Shown here piece after piece: positions 9,024-19,996 of a DNA stretch of 64,000 nucleotides. Source of the DNA: a virus (taxonomy: Duplodnaviria; Caudoviricetes); the IMG/VR virus record IMGVR_UViG_3300033062_002592, positions 1 to 64,000 of that record; one strand, given 5' to 3'. The position numbers and the translations under genes were made by a program. Position 1 is the stretch's first letter, and every line of letters begins with the position of its first letter. Under the pieces are notes generated by a model. It was not told the DNA's origin. It was given only the letters and a program-made list of their open reading frames with translations, and searched no databases.

Positions 9024-9232
9024 GTAAACCAAAAAATTGGTCCAAAAAACTGTATGAAACTGTCGAGGATATCTATTCCGAGTGCAATATTTCTTGGAGT
9101 AGATTGGAGAGGTTAATTAATATGGCTCTTAAAGAAGGTCGTCAAGAAGTCCTAGATGATCCGAGAGCATTTGATTTGGTTTCACGGGACGAATGTCTAG
9201 GAGAACCCATGCGGGACGAAAGTCGTGATTAA
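9020..9232 (+). CDS. Hypothetical protein
   Basis: ATGA-coupled ORF. Confidence 0.55.
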   Translation: MSKPKNWSKKLYETVEDIYSECNISWSRLERLINMALKEGRQEVLDDPRAFDLVSRDECLGEPMRDESRD

Positions 9233-13027: not shown

Positions 13028-13142
13028 TTAACTGCATTACAACATAACTTGACCAAATTCCTAAGTAAAAGCGCAAGATTTATATTCTCCGAAAGCATAT
13101 TGCATCTTGCTCTCATAAGCAACAAAAAAAGAGTAGATAAAG

Positions 13143-13361
13143 ATGCCACGAGCAATAGCCATAAAAATTGGTAGATTCGGCGGAGAAGCCCGCGAGTTTA
13201 TCCTCAACGAAAACGCCACCGTCAATGACGCATTGGCGATGTCGGGTGAGAAGCTGAAGAAAGGAGAGACTCTCTCTATCTTCGGTGACACCGTGAGGGG
13301 AACCCACGAGCTTTCTGAGGGTGACGTAATCGTCATTCAGCCGAGTACCACCGGCGCATAA
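13143..13361 (+). CDS. Ubiquitin-like beta-grasp protein (SAMP/MoaD/ThiS-like) ending TTGA
   Basis: 72 aa; ATVNDAL helix start and LSEGDVIVIQPSTTGA tail matching the L.dGD.v.i.Ppv.GG beta-grasp end; first gene of an operon with E2-like, JAB and E1 genes. Confidence 0.8.
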   Translation: MPRAIAIKIGRFGGEAREFILNENATVNDALAMSGEKLKKGETLSIFGDTVRGTHELSEGDVIVIQPSTTGA

Positions 13362-13366
13362 ACGCC

Positions 13367-13413
13367 AGGAAGTGCTTTATTGATGCGCATTTCCTCATCT
13401 CCCATCTTTTTTT
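13367..13413 (+). terminator. Hairpin plus U-tract after the Ubl gene
   Basis: AGGAAGTGC (13367-75) pairs with GCATTTCCT (13387-95), followed by T7 at 13407-13413. Confidence 0.5.
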
Positions 13414-13448
13414 GTTCTGTGAGATTAGCACCAAGGTGAAATGAAAAA

Positions 13449-14690
13449 ATGAAAGTAAAATTTGGAGATTTCGAGGAAGTCGAAAATGCCGACTATGTAA
13501 AGCAAAAGCTAACCGACTTTTTTAAGCCGACAAAATCCGACAAATTCAAGGAAATATTCATAGCATATCCACATCAATGCTTCTCCGAAGAATATGCACC
13601 GGCAGAGCCAGACAAAGAACTCCTAGAAATGTATATATACAGCATTCCAAAAGATGTAAAGGCTGATGCCGGCAGAACCGAAATACTGCGAATGAATGGT
13701 GTTAATTTAGCACCAGTGGGTGGTCAGCGTGATTGTCTGAAAGTGCATGAAGTTCCAAAAACGTATGATACCATTGAAGACGAAACCGGAAACGTGCTTG
13801 CCATTTTGAAAAACAATCACATTTGGGTCACAAACGACATTTGCCATGGAATGGTCTCTGGAAGTGATGGAGTTGACCAGATGTTCAACACATACATGGG
13901 TTTCGTGGGCGAAAACTTTTTGAATCCGCCAACACCAGAAGAACTTGAGGAAAGAGTTGCACAGTCCCTCAAGCTCATCATCGAGCGGAGCTTCAATGAA
14001 ACAACCAAAAAAATCGAATCCGAAGTACACTCACTCTCAACTGAGGTTGCATCAACCCAAACAAGATATACGGATTTAATTGCACAACTTTCCAGAAAAA
14101 GTGAAATACTTGAGTTGGCAAAGCAACGAAATATGCCGGATCCCAAAGTCCTGCTCAATAAAGTGAAAAAGTTTCCGTGGGTTGACCATCTCAATTTGAA
14201 ATCGGGGATGATTTCTGTGGAAACAAAGCCGATTTCAATTGGTCCATTTCTGTATGGATCTTGGAAGATTTCTTTGGCAAAAGAAGTTCCCATAATGAAA
14301 CATGAAGTGCAAGGCAAAACATTGCACCCATACGAATGGGATGAACACCATGGAAACAAATACTGTTTAGGGGGCTTCGCCCATGACTATACCCAAGCAT
14401 ATAACAGAGGAGACATAGTTGAAGCCTTCAGCATCTGCAAATTGGAAATTACCTCGTACAGCATAGACACAAAGATGACTCCAATTGAAAAGTTCTTCAC
14501 GGCAATCATGGGTAAGAAAGCTCTGGATAAAATCTTCGATGAAGTGTCAAAGGAAAACAAATTCAAAGAATCAGATGGTGTGCAAATCCTATCAATCAAC
14601 GGCCATGAAGTAACATATGTGGGATACAAACGTCTAGCAGACGGCACTAATGCTGTCAACCGAGAAAGGGCCGTGATAAACTATGAGTAA
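13449..14690 (+). CDS. Putative E2-like (UBC-fold) protein with central coiled coil
   Basis: HPY...G..YCLG (about 14325-14372) resembles the HP(N)...G.iCL E2 active-site motif; coiled-coil region; lies between the Ubl and JAB genes. Confidence 0.55.
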   Translation: MKVKFGDFEEVENADYVKQKLTDFFKPTKSDKFKEIFIAYPHQCFSEEYAPAEPDKELLEMYIYSIPKDVKADAGRTEILRMNGVNLAPVGGQRDCLKVHEVPKTYDTIEDETGNVLAILKNNHIWVTNDICHGMVSGSDGVDQMFNTYMGFVGENFLNPPTPEELEERVAQSLKLIIERSFNETTKKIESEVHSLSTEVASTQTRYTDLIAQLSRKSEILELAKQRNMPDPKVLLNKVKKFPWVDHLNLKSGMISVETKPISIGPFLYGSWKISLAKEVPIMKHEVQGKTLHPYEWDEHHGNKYCLGGFAHDYTQAYNRGDIVEAFSICKLEITSYSIDTKMTPIEKFFTAIMGKKALDKIFDEVSKENKFKESDGVQILSINGHEVTYVGYKRLADGTNAVNRERAVINYE

Positions 14691-15822
14691 TTCCATTCAC
14701 ATTCCCTTTGCAGTTTTCCAAAAAGTGAAAACCTACGCAGAGCTGGCGCACGAAGATGATGCTGAAATTGGCGGCTATGTTCAAATGACAGAGCTTCCTG
14801 ATGTCGGGTTAATGGTCAAGGACTTTTTGCTTCCAACTCAAGAAGTTTCAGGGGGAAGCATGAAAGTCGTTCCCGGCGGAGAATGGATGAAAACTCTGTC
14901 AACAGAAGACCTAAAAGAAATCAGGGGCTGGTGGCATTCTCATGGAAAAATGGGCACGTTTCACAGTGGCACCGATGATACAACATTGGACGACAAGTTT
15001 GATGGTGAAACAGCAGGTTCGCCGCCTTATGCAGTTTCCATAGTTTTCTCTCTACCAGATGAAATCAAAGCCAGACTTTCGTATTTCAAGCCAATCAAAA
15101 CCAAAATAATGGAAGTTCCAGTAGAAATCATCTATGAAAAGTGCCCTCACTGTGGCGGAGATATGGAAACTAAGCTACCTAAAGCAGACTTTGAGAAATA
15201 CTGTGAAGAGGTCAAAACTCGGGTTTTCAAAGAAATATACGGATATTGGCAGAATGATAAGCTAAAACGTCTCGGAACTAAGAAAAAGGAAACCACGACA
15301 AACCCTCGCAAAGGGGCTGCGGCGGATACGGACCAAAATTCTACCCAGGATTCGGAAACGGACCAGAATTCTTCGACTACTGACTCTGGTGTTCAAAGCC
15401 TAAGAACTTTTTTTCAAGAAGATTTCGAGGAAGCTGAATGGGAAATAGCCGAAAAAATCATAGATGATATCACCGGCATGAGCATGGCCGAACTAATTGA
15501 AAACGGTCAGTACGACCCAGAGTTATACGAAGACATTGAGGAAAAATATCAAGCCGAACTCAAGAAAGCCAAAGTGAAAGCCTTTATAGTTAAAGGCCGC
15601 TGCCCCCATCAATTCCTTAACGACAAGTTCCGCCCAATCTGCCATTTTCATGGCAAAAACTTTGACTGTAAAAACTGTAAGCACCTGCCGAAGGCTCCCG
15701 CCTTCAAGCGCAAGATGTCTGTGAGAGAGGCCTGCGAACAAACCACTTTAGCCGTCCAAAAAGAGAAAGACTTATCTAATCCTTCTTCATCTAAATCTAT
15801 GAAGAAGATTGTCATTGACTGA
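14683..15822 (+). CDS. JAB/MPN+ metallo-isopeptidase with Zn-binding and acidic extensions
   Basis: EIGG...QE...GWWHSHGKMGTFHSGTDD fits the E...HxH-x7-S-x2-D motif; CPHC and a C-terminal C/H cluster. Confidence 0.9.
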   Translation: MSNSIHIPFAVFQKVKTYAELAHEDDAEIGGYVQMTELPDVGLMVKDFLLPTQEVSGGSMKVVPGGEWMKTLSTEDLKEIRGWWHSHGKMGTFHSGTDDTTLDDKFDGETAGSPPYAVSIVFSLPDEIKARLSYFKPIKTKIMEVPVEIIYEKCPHCGGDMETKLPKADFEKYCEEVKTRVFKEIYGYWQNDKLKRLGTKKKETTTNPRKGAAADTDQNSTQDSETDQNSSTTDSGVQSLRTFFQEDFEEAEWEIAEKIIDDITGMSMAELIENGQYDPELYEDIEEKYQAELKKAKVKAFIVKGRCPHQFLNDKFRPICHFHGKNFDCKNCKHLPKAPAFKRKMSVREACEQTTLAVQKEKDLSNPSSSKSMKKIVID

Positions 15823-15834
15823 AGGTAGTAAACC

Positions 15835-16020
15835 ATGAAAAGCAATCCTTTACCCCACATTCTTGAAATTGCTAGAGATAACGAAGTTCCTAGAAAATTC
15901 ATAGTCAATAACCTGGAGTTTTTTATTGCCGAACTACGAGAAAGACAAAAACAATGGAAAGAAAAAGTTGAATCGAAGGTCTGCTATATTCCCATAGAAG
16001 AACTTTTAGGAGAGATGTAA
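15835..16020 (+). CDS. Small hypothetical protein in the Ubl operon
   Basis: 61-aa ORF between JAB and E1. Confidence 0.5.
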   Translation: MKSNPLPHILEIARDNEVPRKFIVNNLEFFIAELRERQKQWKEKVESKVCYIPIEELLGEM

Positions 16021-16021
16021 A

Positions 16022-16696
16022 TTGGCTGAATTCATTCGGCAACAAAGTTTGATAGACCAAGCGAAGCTTTCCGAGCTTCGCATAGCTATCATCGGTGCGG
16101 GAGCAATAGGCTCTTATACAGCCCTGACATTGACAAAAATGGGCTGTACGCACCTAACAGTTTGGGACAAAGACAACGTAGAGTTGCACAATATTTCCAA
16201 TCAGCTTTTCAACCGTGAATCGTTGGGAACCCCCAAAGTTGTGGCAGTTGAGCAGGAATGCAAGAGATACGCTCCAACAGGTGTTGATGTGGAAATTTAC
16301 AATGAATTCTATGAAGGTCAAACCCTAGACAAACATGATGTCGTGATAGCCTTGACAGATAATATTGAAGGGCGAGCCAAAGCGTTTGAAGCCGCATTTA
16401 AATCGCAGAAAGCCATGCTGTTCATAGATGGTCGAATGGGGGCTGAAACTCTGCGAACTTTCGTTTTCAATCCGAAGGATCCCGATGCTTCAAAGGAATA
16501 TTATGAAGATTACATCGAGGATGTTCAAAACGAAGAACTGCCATGCACTGCTAGGAGCATCATATACAATGTGCTGATGGCGGCTTCGCTGATTTCATCC
16601 TACGTAAAACGGTTCGTTCAAGGCGAGCCTGCGCCATTTCAAATCATCTACAATTTCAAAGATTACTCCCAATGCAAATCATTGGTGGTGACATAA
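16022..16696 (+). CDS. ThiF/MoeB/E1-family adenylyltransferase
   Basis: RQ...IIGAGAIGS, D.D.VE.HN..NQ, PKV, TDN..GR, IDGRMG; ELPCT is a candidate catalytic Cys; no CxxC Zn pairs. Confidence 0.92.
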   Translation: MAEFIRQQSLIDQAKLSELRIAIIGAGAIGSYTALTLTKMGCTHLTVWDKDNVELHNISNQLFNRESLGTPKVVAVEQECKRYAPTGVDVEIYNEFYEGQTLDKHDVVIALTDNIEGRAKAFEAAFKSQKAMLFIDGRMGAETLRTFVFNPKDPDASKEYYEDYIEDVQNEELPCTARSIIYNVLMAASLISSYVKRFVQGEPAPFQIIYNFKDYSQCKSLVVT

Positions 16697-17055
16697 TGCC
16701 ACATAATGCCAAAATTTGTGAACACTGTGGTTCTTTAGAATGGCAAGAAGAGTGGTCTGAAACTAGAAGTTCCAGGAAAACGTGGATGCCAAACGAAGAT
16801 GGAGAATATGAAGAAGAATGGGATGACGATGATTATGGTGGTTCTGATGGTGAACTTACTGGTACATTTTGTTCAGAGTGCGGCTCATCTCATCTCCTAG
16901 ATTTAGAAGCCTTGACAGAAGATGAAATTTTGGAACTTGATAACATAGCATCAGATGAGCGCGTTGCGGCTGCTAGAGCCATGTTAAATGGCTCATGGGA
17001 TGATGAGCCTGAAAGAAAAGGCAAATTAATCGGGAAGAGGGTGCGTCAAACTTGA
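16696..17055 (+). CDS. Acidic Zn-ribbon protein with C-terminal tag (PERKGKLIGKRVRQT)
   Basis: ATG overlaps the E1 TAA; CEHC...CSEC; tag. Confidence 0.8.
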   Translation: MPHNAKICEHCGSLEWQEEWSETRSSRKTWMPNEDGEYEEEWDDDDYGGSDGELTGTFCSECGSSHLLDLEALTEDEILELDNIASDERVAAARAMLNGSWDDEPERKGKLIGKRVRQT

Positions 17056-17333
17056 GTTTCTCGCGGAGCAATCTGAAAGTCGGAGACATCGTGCTGATAA
17101 ACCGTGGTAGTGCTTGTAGCCGACTTAATAATCCAAGTGGAAAAATCAAAGTTAAAATCCTAATGTTTCACGGTGATGCTAATTGGGGCGGAGGAAGTTA
17201 TGACTTCAAAGCCGATGCAACGATTTCCGGTGGTGAAGATTGGTATTACTATAACTTTTCGGAAATCCTCACAATTCCCAATCGGAAAAGAAAAACAAAA
17301 GGTAAACGTGTAGGAGAGTATTGGGCACAATGA
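17052..17333 (+). CDS. SH3/KOW-like small protein with tag variant (KTKGKRVGEYWAQ)
   Basis: NLKVGDIVLI...IKVKI...DF.A...YYNFSEI; paralog of 17330 and 18306. Confidence 0.75.
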   Translation: MSFSRSNLKVGDIVLINRGSACSRLNNPSGKIKVKILMFHGDANWGGGSYDFKADATISGGEDWYYYNFSEILTIPNRKRKTKGKRVGEYWAQ

Positions 17334-17593
17334 TTTTTAACCGTGGAAATTTGAAAAAAGGAAACATCGTACTGATTCGCTTTGGAAGGGGTCACAGCAG
17401 AAGCATGAATCCAAAAGGAAAAATCAAGGTAAGAATCACAAATTTTGTGAATGATGGCATGTATGATTTCAGGGCAAACGCCACAATGTCTAATGGTTTA
17501 TCTGACTATTACTACAACTTTTCTGAAATCCTCAAAATTTGCGAGGAACAAAAACATAAAGGAAAACGCGTAGGAGAGTTCTGGGCACAATGA
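17330..17593 (+). CDS. SH3/KOW-like small protein with tag variant (KHKGKRVGEFWAQ)
   Basis: Tandem paralog of 17052; ATGA coupling. Confidence 0.75.
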   Translation: MIFNRGNLKKGNIVLIRFGRGHSRSMNPKGKIKVRITNFVNDGMYDFRANATMSNGLSDYYYNFSEILKICEEQKHKGKRVGEFWAQ

Positions 17594-17925
17594 GCAAACC
17601 ATATCCCGATTTAGATGAGGAAACCCGAGCAAGAGTAATCAACCGCAGATTTGAATCCCAGCAAGTGCTAACAGCGGAAGAAACTTTGCGAATTATCGAA
17701 CACTTGAAAGCCGTGCAAAAGCTCGTGCCATTTGACAAACTTGCCGAGCTGTTCAAGATTCCATCATGGCGGCAGCACCAAATCTATTCAGCCCTGAAAA
17801 GGCGAAGCGATGTAAAGTTGCACTATAAGAAAGGTGAATGGTTTGCTGAATTTCACGAGGCTGCGCCTGCGTTGCTGACAACTCCTTTCAACACTGTAAA
17901 GGCGGAGGCTTCGCCAAATGAATAA
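17590..17925 (+). CDS. Untagged hypothetical protein, possible wHTH
   Basis: VPFDKLAELFKI...IYSALKR...GEWF pattern; translationally coupled. Confidence 0.6.
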   Translation: MSKPYPDLDEETRARVINRRFESQQVLTAEETLRIIEHLKAVQKLVPFDKLAELFKIPSWRQHQIYSALKRRSDVKLHYKKGEWFAEFHEAAPALLTTPFNTVKAEASPNE

Positions 17926-18115
17926 GCATAAATGCGGAAATTGCGGAAAGTATTTCGTTTGTTTAGCAGTCAGTTGCCCAAGTATTTCGGATTATCAAAA
18001 TAACGAAAAATCGACCTGTAATTGTGAACCTTGTGGCGGCGGCTGCAAAACAAGACCTTTCATTTTACCAAAACGAAAGAAAGGCACATTTATTGGTGAG
18101 AGGGTTTACCAATGA
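17918..18115 (+). CDS. Cys-rich small protein with C-terminal tag (KRKKGTFIGERVYQ)
   Basis: HKCGNCGKYFVCL...C.C..C...C.TRP; tag. Confidence 0.8.
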   Translation: MNKHKCGNCGKYFVCLAVSCPSISDYQNNEKSTCNCEPCGGGCKTRPFILPKRKKGTFIGERVYQ

Positions 18116-18309
18116 TAATTCATAAATGCGGAAATTGTGGTCAAAGATTCATCTGCTTAAATGGTGACTGTGTTGGAGAAGATTCAACCTGTTGGTGTTT
18201 GAACTGCACTAAAAAACCTGGAAGTCATAGAACACACTGTAGGACTAGACCCATTGAGGGTAAACCTCGTAAAAAAGGAACATTCATAGGGGAGCGTGTC
18301 TATCAATGA
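18112..18309 (+). CDS. Cys-rich small protein with C-terminal tag (KPRKKGTFIGERVYQ)
   Basis: Paralog of 17918; tag. Confidence 0.8.
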   Translation: MIIHKCGNCGQRFICLNGDCVGEDSTCWCLNCTKKPGSHRTHCRTRPIEGKPRKKGTFIGERVYQ

Positions 18310-18554
18310 CTGGTGAAAGACCGCCAAATCTGAAAGTAGGAGACTACGTTTGGATTAGAAATGGTAATGACTGTGGCAGAAGTCTCTTACCCATTAGACC
18401 CATAAAGGTTATGATAATAAGATTTGACTTTGGTAACTTCCAAGCTCATACTGATTTAGACCTAGTTACAGATTGGTGGTACGGCTACCATGAAATCTTC
18501 GAGCCCAAACCAAGAAAGAAAGGCAACTTCGTTGGGGAGAGGGTGATACAATGA
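18306..18554 (+). CDS. SH3/KOW-like small protein with C-terminal tag (KPRKKGNFVGERVIQ)
   Basis: NLKVGDYVWI...IKV.I; tag. Confidence 0.8.
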   Translation: MTGERPPNLKVGDYVWIRNGNDCGRSLLPIRPIKVMIIRFDFGNFQAHTDLDLVTDWWYGYHEIFEPKPRKKGNFVGERVIQ

Positions 18555-18745
18555 GTAGTTCTACCTCCTCTGTAACTAATCGACCACATTGGTCGATATG
18601 GTCAGGAACGACTCCAGAACCAGTATATTTCTGGATAGATGAAAATAGGATTGCCCATATATCTGTTTCCCCAGATGAAGAAAAGAAAGCTCCGCCGCCA
18701 AAAAGAGTTAAAGGCAAATATGTTGGAGAGAGGGTCATCCAATGA
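18551..18745 (+). CDS. Small protein with C-terminal tag (KRVKGKYVGERVIQ)
   Basis: ATGA-coupled; tag. Confidence 0.75.
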   Translation: MSSSTSSVTNRPHWSIWSGTTPEPVYFWIDENRIAHISVSPDEEKKAPPPKRVKGKYVGERVIQ

Positions 18746-18951
18746 TAATCACAAAAACCTGTGTAAAATGCGGCAGAAAATTTCAATGTGAGCCTGCTGA
18801 GAACTGTGGTTCTCGGTATACAGAAACTTGCGAATGTGGAATATGTTTAGGACATAAAGGTTCCTGTGAATACCTACTAAAGAAAAAACTGGTAGAGTTG
18901 AACCCGAGAAAAAAAGGAGAAATAATTGGAGAAAGGGTGGTACAACTATGA
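18742..18951 (+). CDS. Cys-rich small protein with C-terminal tag (PRKKGEIIGERVVQL)
   Basis: CVKCGRKFQC...C.C..C...C; tag. Confidence 0.8.
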   Translation: MIITKTCVKCGRKFQCEPAENCGSRYTETCECGICLGHKGSCEYLLKKKLVELNPRKKGEIIGERVVQL

Positions 18952-19214
18952 ATAATCCATGTGGAGCTGATCCAACACCAGCTCATCCTCAAAACTATTG
19001 TCAAGATGATAGGACTTGTTGTTATCACTGCGAAAAAATTAGAGAATGCCTCCCAACATGGGGAGGACCTTTGCTGGTTCATTACTGTTCAAAGCATAAC
19101 CTTTCAAGATTGTGTTCCGCTGTAGCTGAGAAAATTCGAGAAGATGGATTCCTAATTAAAATCTTTCCACCTAGAAAAAAGGGTACCTTCGTAGGAGCTA
19201 GAGTTTATCAATGA
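18948..19214 (+). CDS. Cys-rich small protein with C-terminal tag (PPRKKGTFVGARVYQ)
   Basis: C...C..CC..C...C...C...C; tag. Confidence 0.8.
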   Translation: MNNPCGADPTPAHPQNYCQDDRTCCYHCEKIRECLPTWGGPLLVHYCSKHNLSRLCSAVAEKIREDGFLIKIFPPRKKGTFVGARVYQ

Positions 19215-19996
19215 AATTCAATATGGAAGAAGCCTTAAAATCTGGTTTCTACATCAGCGGAACAACAGGCTGCGGTAAAACTGATGTCGGAATGTACTGT
19301 GCAGATGACTTGCGTTCACAAGGTATCACGGTGTTCGTCTTTGACCCTTCACAAGATTGGATTGAAAGATATCCAATTCGGAACAGAGTTAGTTTCAGCT
19401 TAATCACCGATGATATCGACCTAGGTTTCTCTGACTTAAAACTTGAGGATACAATCTTTGATACTTCGCGTTTAACAACCTTGCAATTTCAACAACTTGT
19501 GGAGAACTTTTCTAAGGCAATTTATTTACATCAAGCCGTTTTGAAAAAAGAGGAACGAAAATTCTGTTTTCCTATCTTTGAAGAGGCACACACTGTCTTG
19601 CCGGAAGGAGTTATGAAGTCCAAAACACTTCAAAACCTAGTGCGTTTAATCACTGTGGGTCGCAACTATAAAATACGAGTCGGCATGATAACGCAGTTTG
19701 CAGCCATGCTTGATAAGTCCGCGTTGAGGTATATGGGGCAAAGGTATTTTGGGTGGACTGACGAATACAACGATGTCCACAGAATTGGCACAATGATTGG
19801 TTTTGAAGAGTCTAAAGCCTTAAAATTTCTTAAATCAGGAGAATTTCTCTACTATTGTCCTTCTCTTCACATTCAAGAAAAGGTGTCAATTGAACCTTAT
19901 AAATCAATTCTTCCCATTATTAAAAGGGAGAAGAATCCTCCTCAAAAATCTCGCCTAGAATTTTCAAAGATAAACATCGTTACCAAATATTGGTGA
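19211..19996 (+). CDS. HerA/FtsK/VirB4-superfamily P-loop ATPase
   Basis: GTTGCGKT Walker A, VFDP, FEEAH Walker B, GR Arg finger, TQ motif; coupled to the last tagged ORF. Confidence 0.8.
   Translation: MKFNMEEALKSGFYISGTTGCGKTDVGMYCADDLRSQGITVFVFDPSQDWIERYPIRNRVSFSLITDDIDLGFSDLKLEDTIFDTSRLTTLQFQQLVENFSKAIYLHQAVLKKEERKFCFPIFEEAHTVLPEGVMKSKTLQNLVRLITVGRNYKIRVGMITQFAAMLDKSALRYMGQRYFGWTDEYNDVHRIGTMIGFEESKALKFLKSGEFLYYCPSLHIQEKVSIEPYKSILPIIKREKNPPQKSRLEFSKINIVTKYW

Follow-up and report, generated by a model that had tools for sequence, protein, structure and literature searches.

Ubiquitin-like protein (Ubl) conjugation in prokaryotes is known as a tool of the host, used for sulfur transfer, SAMPylation and, in the CBASS, Bil and Bub systems, defence. 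Prokaryotic operons that combine a Ubl, an E2, an E1 and a JAB peptidase have been described (Iyer, Burroughs and Aravind 2006, PMC1779556), and Bub is a diverged bacterial E1/E2/Ubl pathway that proceeds through oxyester intermediates, has no catalytic cysteines and employs a serine protease (PMC11601596). Among viruses and virus-like elements, the Nidhogg viruses of Helarchaeota carry ThiF/E1 genes and Borgs carry JAMM deSAMPylases (bioRxiv 10.1101/2021.07.29.454249; PMC12660748). Here we describe a locus in a 64,000-nucleotide stretch of viral DNA (hereafter the window), which is the first 64 kb of the linear 106-kb IMG/VR virus record IMGVR_UViG_3300033062_002592 (CheckV completeness 78%). 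Positions 13143‒19996 of the window hold a predicted viral Ubl-conjugation module of the known operon kind, and this module is accompanied by a family of small proteins sharing a 12-residue peptide (hereafter the tag) that has no described counterpart. In the literature that we searched, neither a complete virus-owned Ubl set nor this E2 family nor the tag family is described.

The module lies on the plus strand and encodes, in order, a putative Ubl (hereafter the Ubl), a 413-residue E2-like protein, a JAB protease, a 61-residue open reading frame (ORF), an E1, a run of small ORFs and a HerA-type ATPase (Table 1). Every ORF named in the initial annotation of this DNA is present where it had been placed, and the noted chain of genes was borne out: from the JAB gene through to that of the ATPase, adjacent genes either overlap by 4‒25 nucleotides or are separated by 1‒12 nucleotides. 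Nine tagged ORFs and one untagged ORF (17590‒17925) were confirmed between the E1 and ATPase genes, and the last tagged gene overlaps the start of the ATPase gene. In the interval between the Ubl stop and the E2-like gene (13362‒13448), a T-rich run at 13405‒13417 precedes a good ribosome-binding site of the E2-like gene. This run could act as a partial terminator, giving an excess of Ubl transcripts over the enzyme transcripts.

The E1 protein belongs to the ThiF family (Pfam ThiF, 1.5e-28), as had been proposed, and contains an invariant Cys in a Leu-Pro-Cys-Thr motif. In the comparison with the PADLOC E1-E2 models it reached 1e-15, with Cap2-type models scoring best, and the solved structures nearest to it are UBA5, MoeB, ThiF and PaaA. 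A Gly-x-Gly-x-x-Gly motif, the Asp-Asn pair of the Mg site, Arg residues and Cys175 of the Leu-Pro-Cys-Thr motif are invariant in seven orthologues. Cys175 is the putative catalytic cysteine of the E1: the residue is conserved, and its role in thioester formation is predicted. The 72-residue Ubl of the window matched ThiS and RnfH in Pfam below threshold. Among its orthologues, Ub-Mut7C was matched in 4 of 11 and ThiS likewise in 4 of 11, and the top match of the Ubl profile among solved structures was SAMP2, over the full length (E 0.023). All 11 orthologues end in Ser-(Thr/Ser)-(Thr/Ser)-Gly-Ala (Ser-Thr-Thr-Gly-Ala in the window), in which Gly-Ala is invariant. The E1-E2 enzyme of CBASS also accepts Ala as the last residue (PMC10097602).

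The JAB protein of the window scored weakly when searched alone, and Prok-JAB was matched in seven of nine orthologues. The family profile matches Rpn11 (E 2.6e-6). Its JAMM motif is intact, in line with the protease assignment made earlier, and Glu28, His85-x-His87, Ser95 and Asp98 are invariant in the nine orthologues. The C-terminal Cys/His cluster is conserved as well.

The protein encoded at 13449‒14690 had been proposed to adopt a UBC fold with a catalytic Cys. The full-length AlphaFold2 model (predicted local distance difference test (pLDDT) 93) comprises an alpha/beta domain (residues 1‒160), a 65-residue helix (163‒226), a predicted UBC-fold domain (~228‒355) and a C-terminal beta-sheet; the C-terminal domain modelled alone had a pLDDT of 91. 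We compared the model of the UBC domain with ~48,000 solved chains by VIA, and also by Foldseek. All of the best 50 VIA matches are E2, UEV or RWD folds (Z 4.7‒6.5), including canonical E2s, UEV, RWD and CdnG-E2. The E2 domain of Cap2 (7to3) aligned with Z 6.0 over 97 residues (root-mean-square deviation 3.4), and the Bub pathway complex (9eav) with Z 5.6. The Foldseek list consisted almost entirely of E2s (E 0.05‒0.3). Since the match list is uniform and the order of the elements (a helix, a four-stranded sheet, a His-Pro loop, the Cys and further helices) fits, the modelled domain appears to have a UBC fold; the scores are modest, but the uniformity of the match list carries the case. When the full-length model was used instead, Foldseek gave only glutamine-amidotransferase-like matches of low TM-score, which fell on the N-terminal domain, and matches to the long helix drowned out the rest of the VIA list.

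A profile search with the E2-like protein retrieved 110 homologues, 23 of them with E <1e-30. In an alignment of 35 homologues, Cys306 and Gly308 are the sole invariant residues (35/35), and the Cys that had been proposed as catalytic is thus the one invariant Cys of the family. His293 and Pro294 are found in 34 of the 35 and are followed at position 295 by Tyr or His (His293-Pro-Tyr in the window). The window protein gave no Pfam match at E up to 0.1 and no PADLOC or PHROG match, and the 35 homologues gave no Pfam match at E up to 0.01, UQ_con and Prok-E2_A to E included. Since no curated E2 family matches, we set the E2-like proteins apart as a separate UBC-like family. A sequence-profile search of solved structures returned coiled-coil noise only, and scans of viral contigs with single-protein or four-sequence queries of E2-like and E1 found none. 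Neither the deposited phage collection nor the species genomes yielded an E2-like homologue, and look-ups in the ESM Atlas returned viral clusters only. A 3224-residue match was rejected as a cadherin-repeat artefact.

The N-terminal domain of the E2-like protein (13449‒13930, residues 1‒160) resembles a flavodoxin-like or class I glutamine-amidotransferase-like fold (Z ~7). Gln93, Asp95, Asp111, Asn123, Trp126, Asp130 and His133 are conserved in this domain, and there is no conserved Cys. We considered a Cys-nucleophile amidotransferase or transglutaminase acting on the Gln of the tag and rejected it, as Cys44 is present in 12 of the 35 homologues. Since this nucleophile candidate is not conserved, binding is a more likely role of the domain than catalysis, and the domain is among the candidates for the receptor of the tag. 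Longer E2-like homologues (570‒700 residues) contain no Pfam domains that account for it.

The genome encodes 19‒20 tagged ORFs, all within its first 19 kb. The core of the tag begins with one or more basic residues, often followed by a Gly; a hydrophobic residue, Ile-Gly, a stretch of four or five residues and a Gln (or His) come next. In its fuller form of 12 residues, the basic part is followed by Gly, one variable residue (x) and then the hydrophobic residue. A loose C-terminal pattern of the tag matched 20 of 417 frames in the first 22 kb versus 4 of 1276, all unconvincing, in the other 84 kb (~15-fold). The structural half of the genome contains no tags, and control loci gave zero or one match each to the loose pattern. 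Whole-genome shuffles produced ~5 matches at any location, whereas every real tag ends zero or one residue from the stop. The codons of the tag carry on average 1.11 bits of information at positions 1 and 2 versus 0.51 at position 3, and the codon of the invariant Gly carries 2.0, 2.0 and 0.3 bits at its three positions, with the same pattern in the related contig L018. Since the conservation has codon periodicity, selection acts on the tag peptide and not on a ribosome-binding site.

The Gly is the sole invariant residue of the tag, Lys and Arg interchange at the basic positions, and the C-terminus beyond the Gln varies by 0‒4 residues. The consensus differs by lineage. About 20 copies are found in 20 kb of L018, and L020 has 14 C-terminal copies. 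In the lineage of L003, L011 and L020, the same 12-mer also stands directly after the start Met. Since the tag can serve at either terminus and its conservation extends to both sides of the Gly, it is best read as a portable docking peptide. The initial annotation had also considered that JAB exposes the C-terminus of the tag for conjugation of each small protein, or that the Lys residues of the tag accept the Ubl. The former idea is weakened by the N-terminal copies and the conserved residues after the Gly, and the latter by the replacement of Lys with Arg. Other candidate functions were rejected on inspection of the motif. A proteasome HbYX motif is not supported, as a penultimate Tyr and a free terminus are not conserved and N-terminal copies exist, and the Gln-x-x-hydrophobic-x-x-aromatic pattern of a PCNA PIP box is absent. 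A likeness of the tag to the first beta-hairpin of the Ubl was also dismissed, as the two do not co-vary across lineages.

Some of the tagged proteins belong to a Cys-rich family with eight Cys residues (8-Cys), which was aligned with 21 members. Two untagged Cys-rich proteins (11974‒12153 and 12433‒12648) end in Cys-(Lys/Arg)-(Ser/Ala)-Arg-Phe, and their counterparts in L011 and L020 are tagged N-terminally, as if a free C-terminus were required. At 9225‒9788, two tagged zinc-ribbon genes are joined in one 187-residue frame, and the first tag and its stop are found in another frame after a run of seven A. Reading the region with a frame shift restores the usual stop-start overlap with the next gene, and the fusion may stem from an indel in the assembly or mark a slippery site.

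Eleven further contigs contain the E2-like gene, and the order Ubl, E2-like, JAB, E1 is kept wherever the contig is long enough. The extended order, with small genes and the ATPase following the E1, recurs in at least six related viral lineages. It holds in full in L018, L019 and L020, and in L002, L003, L008‒L011, L013 and L014 those of its parts for which the contig has room are present. In L018, L019 and L020 (104, 41 and 101 kb), the ATPase homologues, which were retrieved independently, lie 2.5‒3 kb downstream of the E1 gene. Every module-bearing contig of at least ~4 kb also carries tagged ORFs. The synteny check that the initial annotation had suggested thus found the operon, the tags and the ATPase inherited together in every related virus with enough sequence. 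Even homologues of the E2-like protein with an identity of only ~20% have a Ub-Mut7C protein (28.9 bits, which exceeds the cutoff), a Prok-JAB protein (44.5 bits) or both as neighbours, which argues that the four-gene core is an old conserved unit. Across the relatives, the E1 is 64‒70% identical (seven viral orthologues), the ATPase 55‒64%, the E2-like protein 35‒42% and the JAB protease 30‒42%. Since the E2-like and JAB proteins evolve faster than the E1 and the ATPase, these values give a weak hint that one of the former two is the co-evolving receptor of the tag.

The profile of the ATPase matches solved HerA chains (E 5e-11), DUF87 was matched in 14 of 25 homologues, and PADLOC mad8 gave 6e-9. 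Its Gly-x-Gly-Lys and Phe-Glu-Glu-Ala motifs are invariant. With 236‒261 residues, compared with ~500 in full HerA, these proteins match the HerA C-terminal core only (~290‒535) and have neither the N-terminal HAS barrel nor the helical insert of the full architecture. They also show a weak TrwB/VirD4-like similarity. In this virus group, the gene that closes the module is always that of the ATPase. More distant ATPase homologues (41‒45% identity) were found in three other viral contigs, in which tags are absent within 10 kb and a Ubl, E2-like, JAB or E1 gene was not detectable there either; this weakens the proposal that the ATPase reads the tag. Two of these homologues, in L024 (9992‒10840) and L025 (9992‒10831), end in a hydrophobic, membrane-helix-like tail. 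Since these ATPase-only viruses lack tags, the tag tracks the Ubl module rather than the ATPase family in the available sample.

Starting from what was observed (the genes present, their folds and catalytic motifs, the synteny and co-occurrence, and selection on the tag at the level of the peptide), we consider that the locus probably encodes a functional viral cascade of Ubl conjugation, to which the tag brings the small proteins either as substrates or as adaptors. For the chemistry of the cascade, we reason by analogy with E1/E2 systems. The minimal E1 would adenylate the C-terminus of the 72-residue beta-grasp protein, whose Gly-Ala end may be used as such or after the JAB protease trims the Ala. 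The E1 would then load the Ubl on Cys175 and hand it to Cys306 of the E2-like protein, in which the UBC domain follows the extra alpha/beta domain and the long helix; this helix is the probable means of oligomerisation. Processing or reversal of the linkage would fall to the Rpn11-like JAB protease. The tag would serve as a docking signal that brings ~20 structurally unrelated small proteins to the machinery, where they may be substrates or interchangeable adaptors that aim the Ubl. Among the three models for the tag in the initial annotation, docking on the conjugation machinery fits best as a candidate, and the receptor is more likely the E2-like or JAB protein than the E1 or the ATPase. A more specific form of this model, in which the tag is a recruitment signal for the viral E2 (or JAB) and the ~20 small proteins either are E3-less adaptors directing the Ubl to host proteins, such as those of defence, or are switched by reversible Ubl attachment, is a tentative possibility.

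Several points weigh against the proposed cascade. The Ubl family matches in the window genome are below threshold, and the protein ends in Gly-Ala instead of Gly-Gly. The UBC-domain scores given above are modest, and neither an E3 nor a target was identified. The contact between the tag and the machinery is one that we infer. The informative relatives all belong to one virus group, and tag and module could occur together because these viruses inherited the same syntenic early region from a common ancestor, and not because of function; the contigs of the distant E2-like homologues are too short for the tag check.

The module could also be real while the tag is read outside it, by the HerA-type ATPase, by a host factor (a chaperone, a protease or a clamp) or by a virion-loading route comparable to the targeting peptide that T4 internal proteins share, so that the adjacency would reflect early-gene clustering. 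We regard this explanation as unlikely, although the distribution of the tag genes agrees with it: they lie up to 10 kb off the module on either side and on both strands, and downstream of the ATPase gene in relatives. The position of the ATPase as a conserved member of the module, its TrwB/VirD4-like similarity and the overlap of its start with the last tagged gene also agree with it. On the other hand, ATPase homologues occur in viruses without tags, the structural half of the genome is free of tags, and tag and module are found together in every lineage seen. It is improbable that, as in CBASS, JAB cuts the tag after Ile-Gly and the E1 and E2 conjugate the small proteins via the new C-terminal Gly. 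Such cleavage would explain the sole invariant Gly and the variable C-terminus beyond the Gln, and it has precedents, since JAMM enzymes cut after a C-terminal Gly and Cap2 joins a non-Ubl protein via its C-terminal Gly or Ala, where Cap3 cuts (PMC10097602). However, the N-terminal tags retain the whole motif, including the residues after the Gly and the Gln, and a cut there would free a heptapeptide only. The operon, moreover, already has a dedicated Ubl with a tail unlike the tag.

The beta-grasp protein and the E1 might instead be a sulfur-carrier pair (ThiS/MoaD-like), with JAB as a CysO/Mec-type trimmer and no conjugation at all. In favour of such a pair, the nearest matches of the minimal E1 are UBA5, MoeB and ThiF, and the best family matches of the Ubl are ThiS and SAMP2; SAMPs have a dual function. 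We consider this very improbable, since the gene between those of the Ubl and JAB always codes for a UBC-fold protein whose Cys is invariant, and does so down to the distant homologues. A scan of the operon proteins, which did not extend to the remainder of the 106-kb genome, turned up no rhodanese, ThiG or MoaE-type partner. Finally, the tag could be a nucleotide-level element that provides a ribosome-binding site or translational coupling for the next overlapping gene. The Glu-Arg-Val-Ile codons do resemble a Shine-Dalgarno sequence 8‒10 nucleotides before the next ATG, and all Gln codons of the tags in the window genome are CAA. This explanation is nevertheless contradicted by the codon periodicity with freely varying synonymous sites, by the presence of the tag at N-termini and on genes with which a run ends, and by the use of both Gln codons in L018, and it is hardly credible.

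Table 1. Features of the module and of the tagged-gene clusters in the window.
Positions	Strand	Feature	Basis or remark
2319‒2785	-	Two further tagged 8-Cys proteins	Family alignment
7849‒8620	+	Three tagged zinc-ribbon ORFs, overlapping run	
9225‒10658	+	Four to five tagged ORFs, the first two fused in frame	
13071‒13091	+	Putative archaeal promoter	TATA-like T-T-T-A-T-A-T at 13080‒13086, ahead of the Ubl gene; read from the sequence
13143‒13361	+	Ubl-like protein (beta-grasp, ThiS/SAMP-like), 72 residues	Weak ThiS and RnfH matches
13449‒14690	+	E2-like protein, 413 residues	UBC-fold domain in the AlphaFold2 model
14683‒15822	+	JAMM/JAB metalloprotease, Rpn11-like, 379 residues, C-terminal Cys/His zinc domain	Prok-JAB in orthologues
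15835‒16020	+	61-residue ORF, lineage-specific filler	Absent or unrelated at the same position in L002, L003, L018, L019 and L020
16022‒16696	+	Minimal E1 (ThiF/UBA5/MoeB-like), 224 residues, Cys175	Pfam ThiF 1.5e-28
16672‒17055	+	Tagged double zinc-ribbon acidic protein, 127 residues	Between E1 and ATPase in several related lineages; tblastn match in L019
17052‒17593	+	Two tagged paralogues, 93 and 90 residues, Trp-Ala-Gln tag variant	ORF starts 17052 and 17321
17590‒17925	+	Untagged 111-residue ORF, possibly DNA-binding (winged-helix)	Weak TFIIE_beta match; tblastn L018 2e-17
17918‒19214	+	Six tagged small ORFs	8-Cys family: 17918, 18112, 18742; others: 18306, 18551, 18948
19211‒19996	+	HerA/FtsK-type P-loop ATPase, core only, 261 residues, last in the chain	Profile versus HerA structures

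The window also encodes a family-B DNA polymerase, an RFC-like clamp loader, an anaerobic ribonucleotide reductase and many glycosyltransferases. The closest deposited relatives of the polymerase are those of haloarchaeal tailed viruses (27‒29% identity). A frameshifted homologue of the operon ATPase is present on the chromosome of a Bathyarchaeota metagenome-assembled genome (L021, 9740‒10769), on a 559-kb contig among ordinary cellular genes. It is possibly the relic of an integrated relative, which would point to the host. Since the polymerase relatives are haloarchaeal viruses and this ATPase homologue is in a Bathyarchaeota genome, an archaeal host, possibly of the Bathyarchaeia, is plausible for the virus. 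Papers on Bathyarchaeia viruses make no mention of Ubl-module or tag genes.

Upstream of the Ubl gene, a 142-residue ORF (11444‒11872) is kept in L002, L003, L008, L009, L011, L013, L018 and L019, and the whole ~17-kb early region is therefore syntenic across the related loci. HNH-like endonuclease ORFs adjoin the module on the opposite strand (12638‒13027 and 6955‒7356, both minus; L003 3775‒4263, minus). In L003, an HNH-like ORF lies between the Ubl and E2-like genes, and a LAGLIDADG-like ORF is found at 2998‒3474. These ORFs look like homing-endonuclease insertions.

The locus provides a complete Ubl set that is owned by a virus, is conserved in a family of ~100-kb, plausibly archaeal, tailed viruses and is built on an E2 family that had not been recognised. 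The tag is found on unrelated small proteins, at either end, and drifts in step within a lineage, a pattern that speaks for a compact recognition code. Docking of the tag on the E2-like or JAB protein, if it occurs, would mean that substrates are chosen without E3 ligases. Such a system would bear on the early evolution of ubiquitin signalling and might provide a small orthogonal tagging system. The parts of the module are small and look soluble, so that their direct expression is feasible.

The closest described counterparts are the prokaryotic Ubl-E2-E1-JAB operons and Bil, which have the same four parts as those predicted for the module: next to a ThiF-type E1 and a JAMM peptidase, these are a modifier of the beta-grasp type and a UBC-fold protein with a catalytic Cys. 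In those systems the carrier is a bacterial defence island, whereas here it is a virus with a plausible archaeal host. The E2 of the window also lies outside the Pfam and PADLOC families and is extended by an alpha/beta domain at its N-terminus and by a long helix. The Ubl has a Gly-Ala end, and ~20 tagged small proteins and a HerA-type ATPase accompany the set. Type II CBASS resembles the module in that Cap2 and Cap3 apply E1/E2/JAB chemistry via a short conserved terminal tail and accept a C-terminal Gly or Ala (PMC10097602). The E1 scores best with the Cap2-type PADLOC models, and the E2-like domain aligns with the E2 domain of Cap2. However, E1 and E2 are separate genes here, a probable true Ubl is present, and the tag is not strictly C-terminal. 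Neither a CD-NTase, as in type II CBASS, nor an effector was found among the operon proteins scanned.

The module is also similar to the SAMP/UbaA/HvJAMM1 system and to the Caldiarchaeum and Asgard E1-E2-RING-Rpn11 cassettes (PMC4443979, PMC3082918, PMC5654768) in the SAMP2 match of its Ubl, its Rpn11-like JAB protease and its likely archaeal host. The SAMP systems have no E2, the Caldiarchaeum cassette has a canonical E2 and a RING E3, and neither is accompanied by a tag family. As in the Nidhogg viruses and Borgs, Ubl-pathway genes are carried by an archaeal virus or virus-like element. In the reports on those elements, however, an isolated E1 or JAMM protein is thought to act on host systems, whereas the window encodes the whole set, including its own Ubl and E2. 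Unlike in Bub, the Cys residues are invariant and the peptidase is a JAMM enzyme, although a structure of the Bub pathway (9eav) is among the structural matches of the E2-like domain.

Fast-evolving proteins that have unrelated bodies but share one terminal module, by which they connect to a common machine, are also known in other viruses, in the poxvirus ankyrin/PRANC (F-box-like) proteins and in the T4 internal proteins with their common capsid-targeting peptide. If the small proteins act as adaptors, the tag family would be a peptide-based counterpart of the F-box/PRANC arrangement, and the locus would be the first virus-owned archaeal conjugation system with its own substrate code. The likeness to PRANC and T4 internal proteins is a functional analogy with no sequence relationship, and the shared module of the present family comprises 12 residues and can occupy either terminus.

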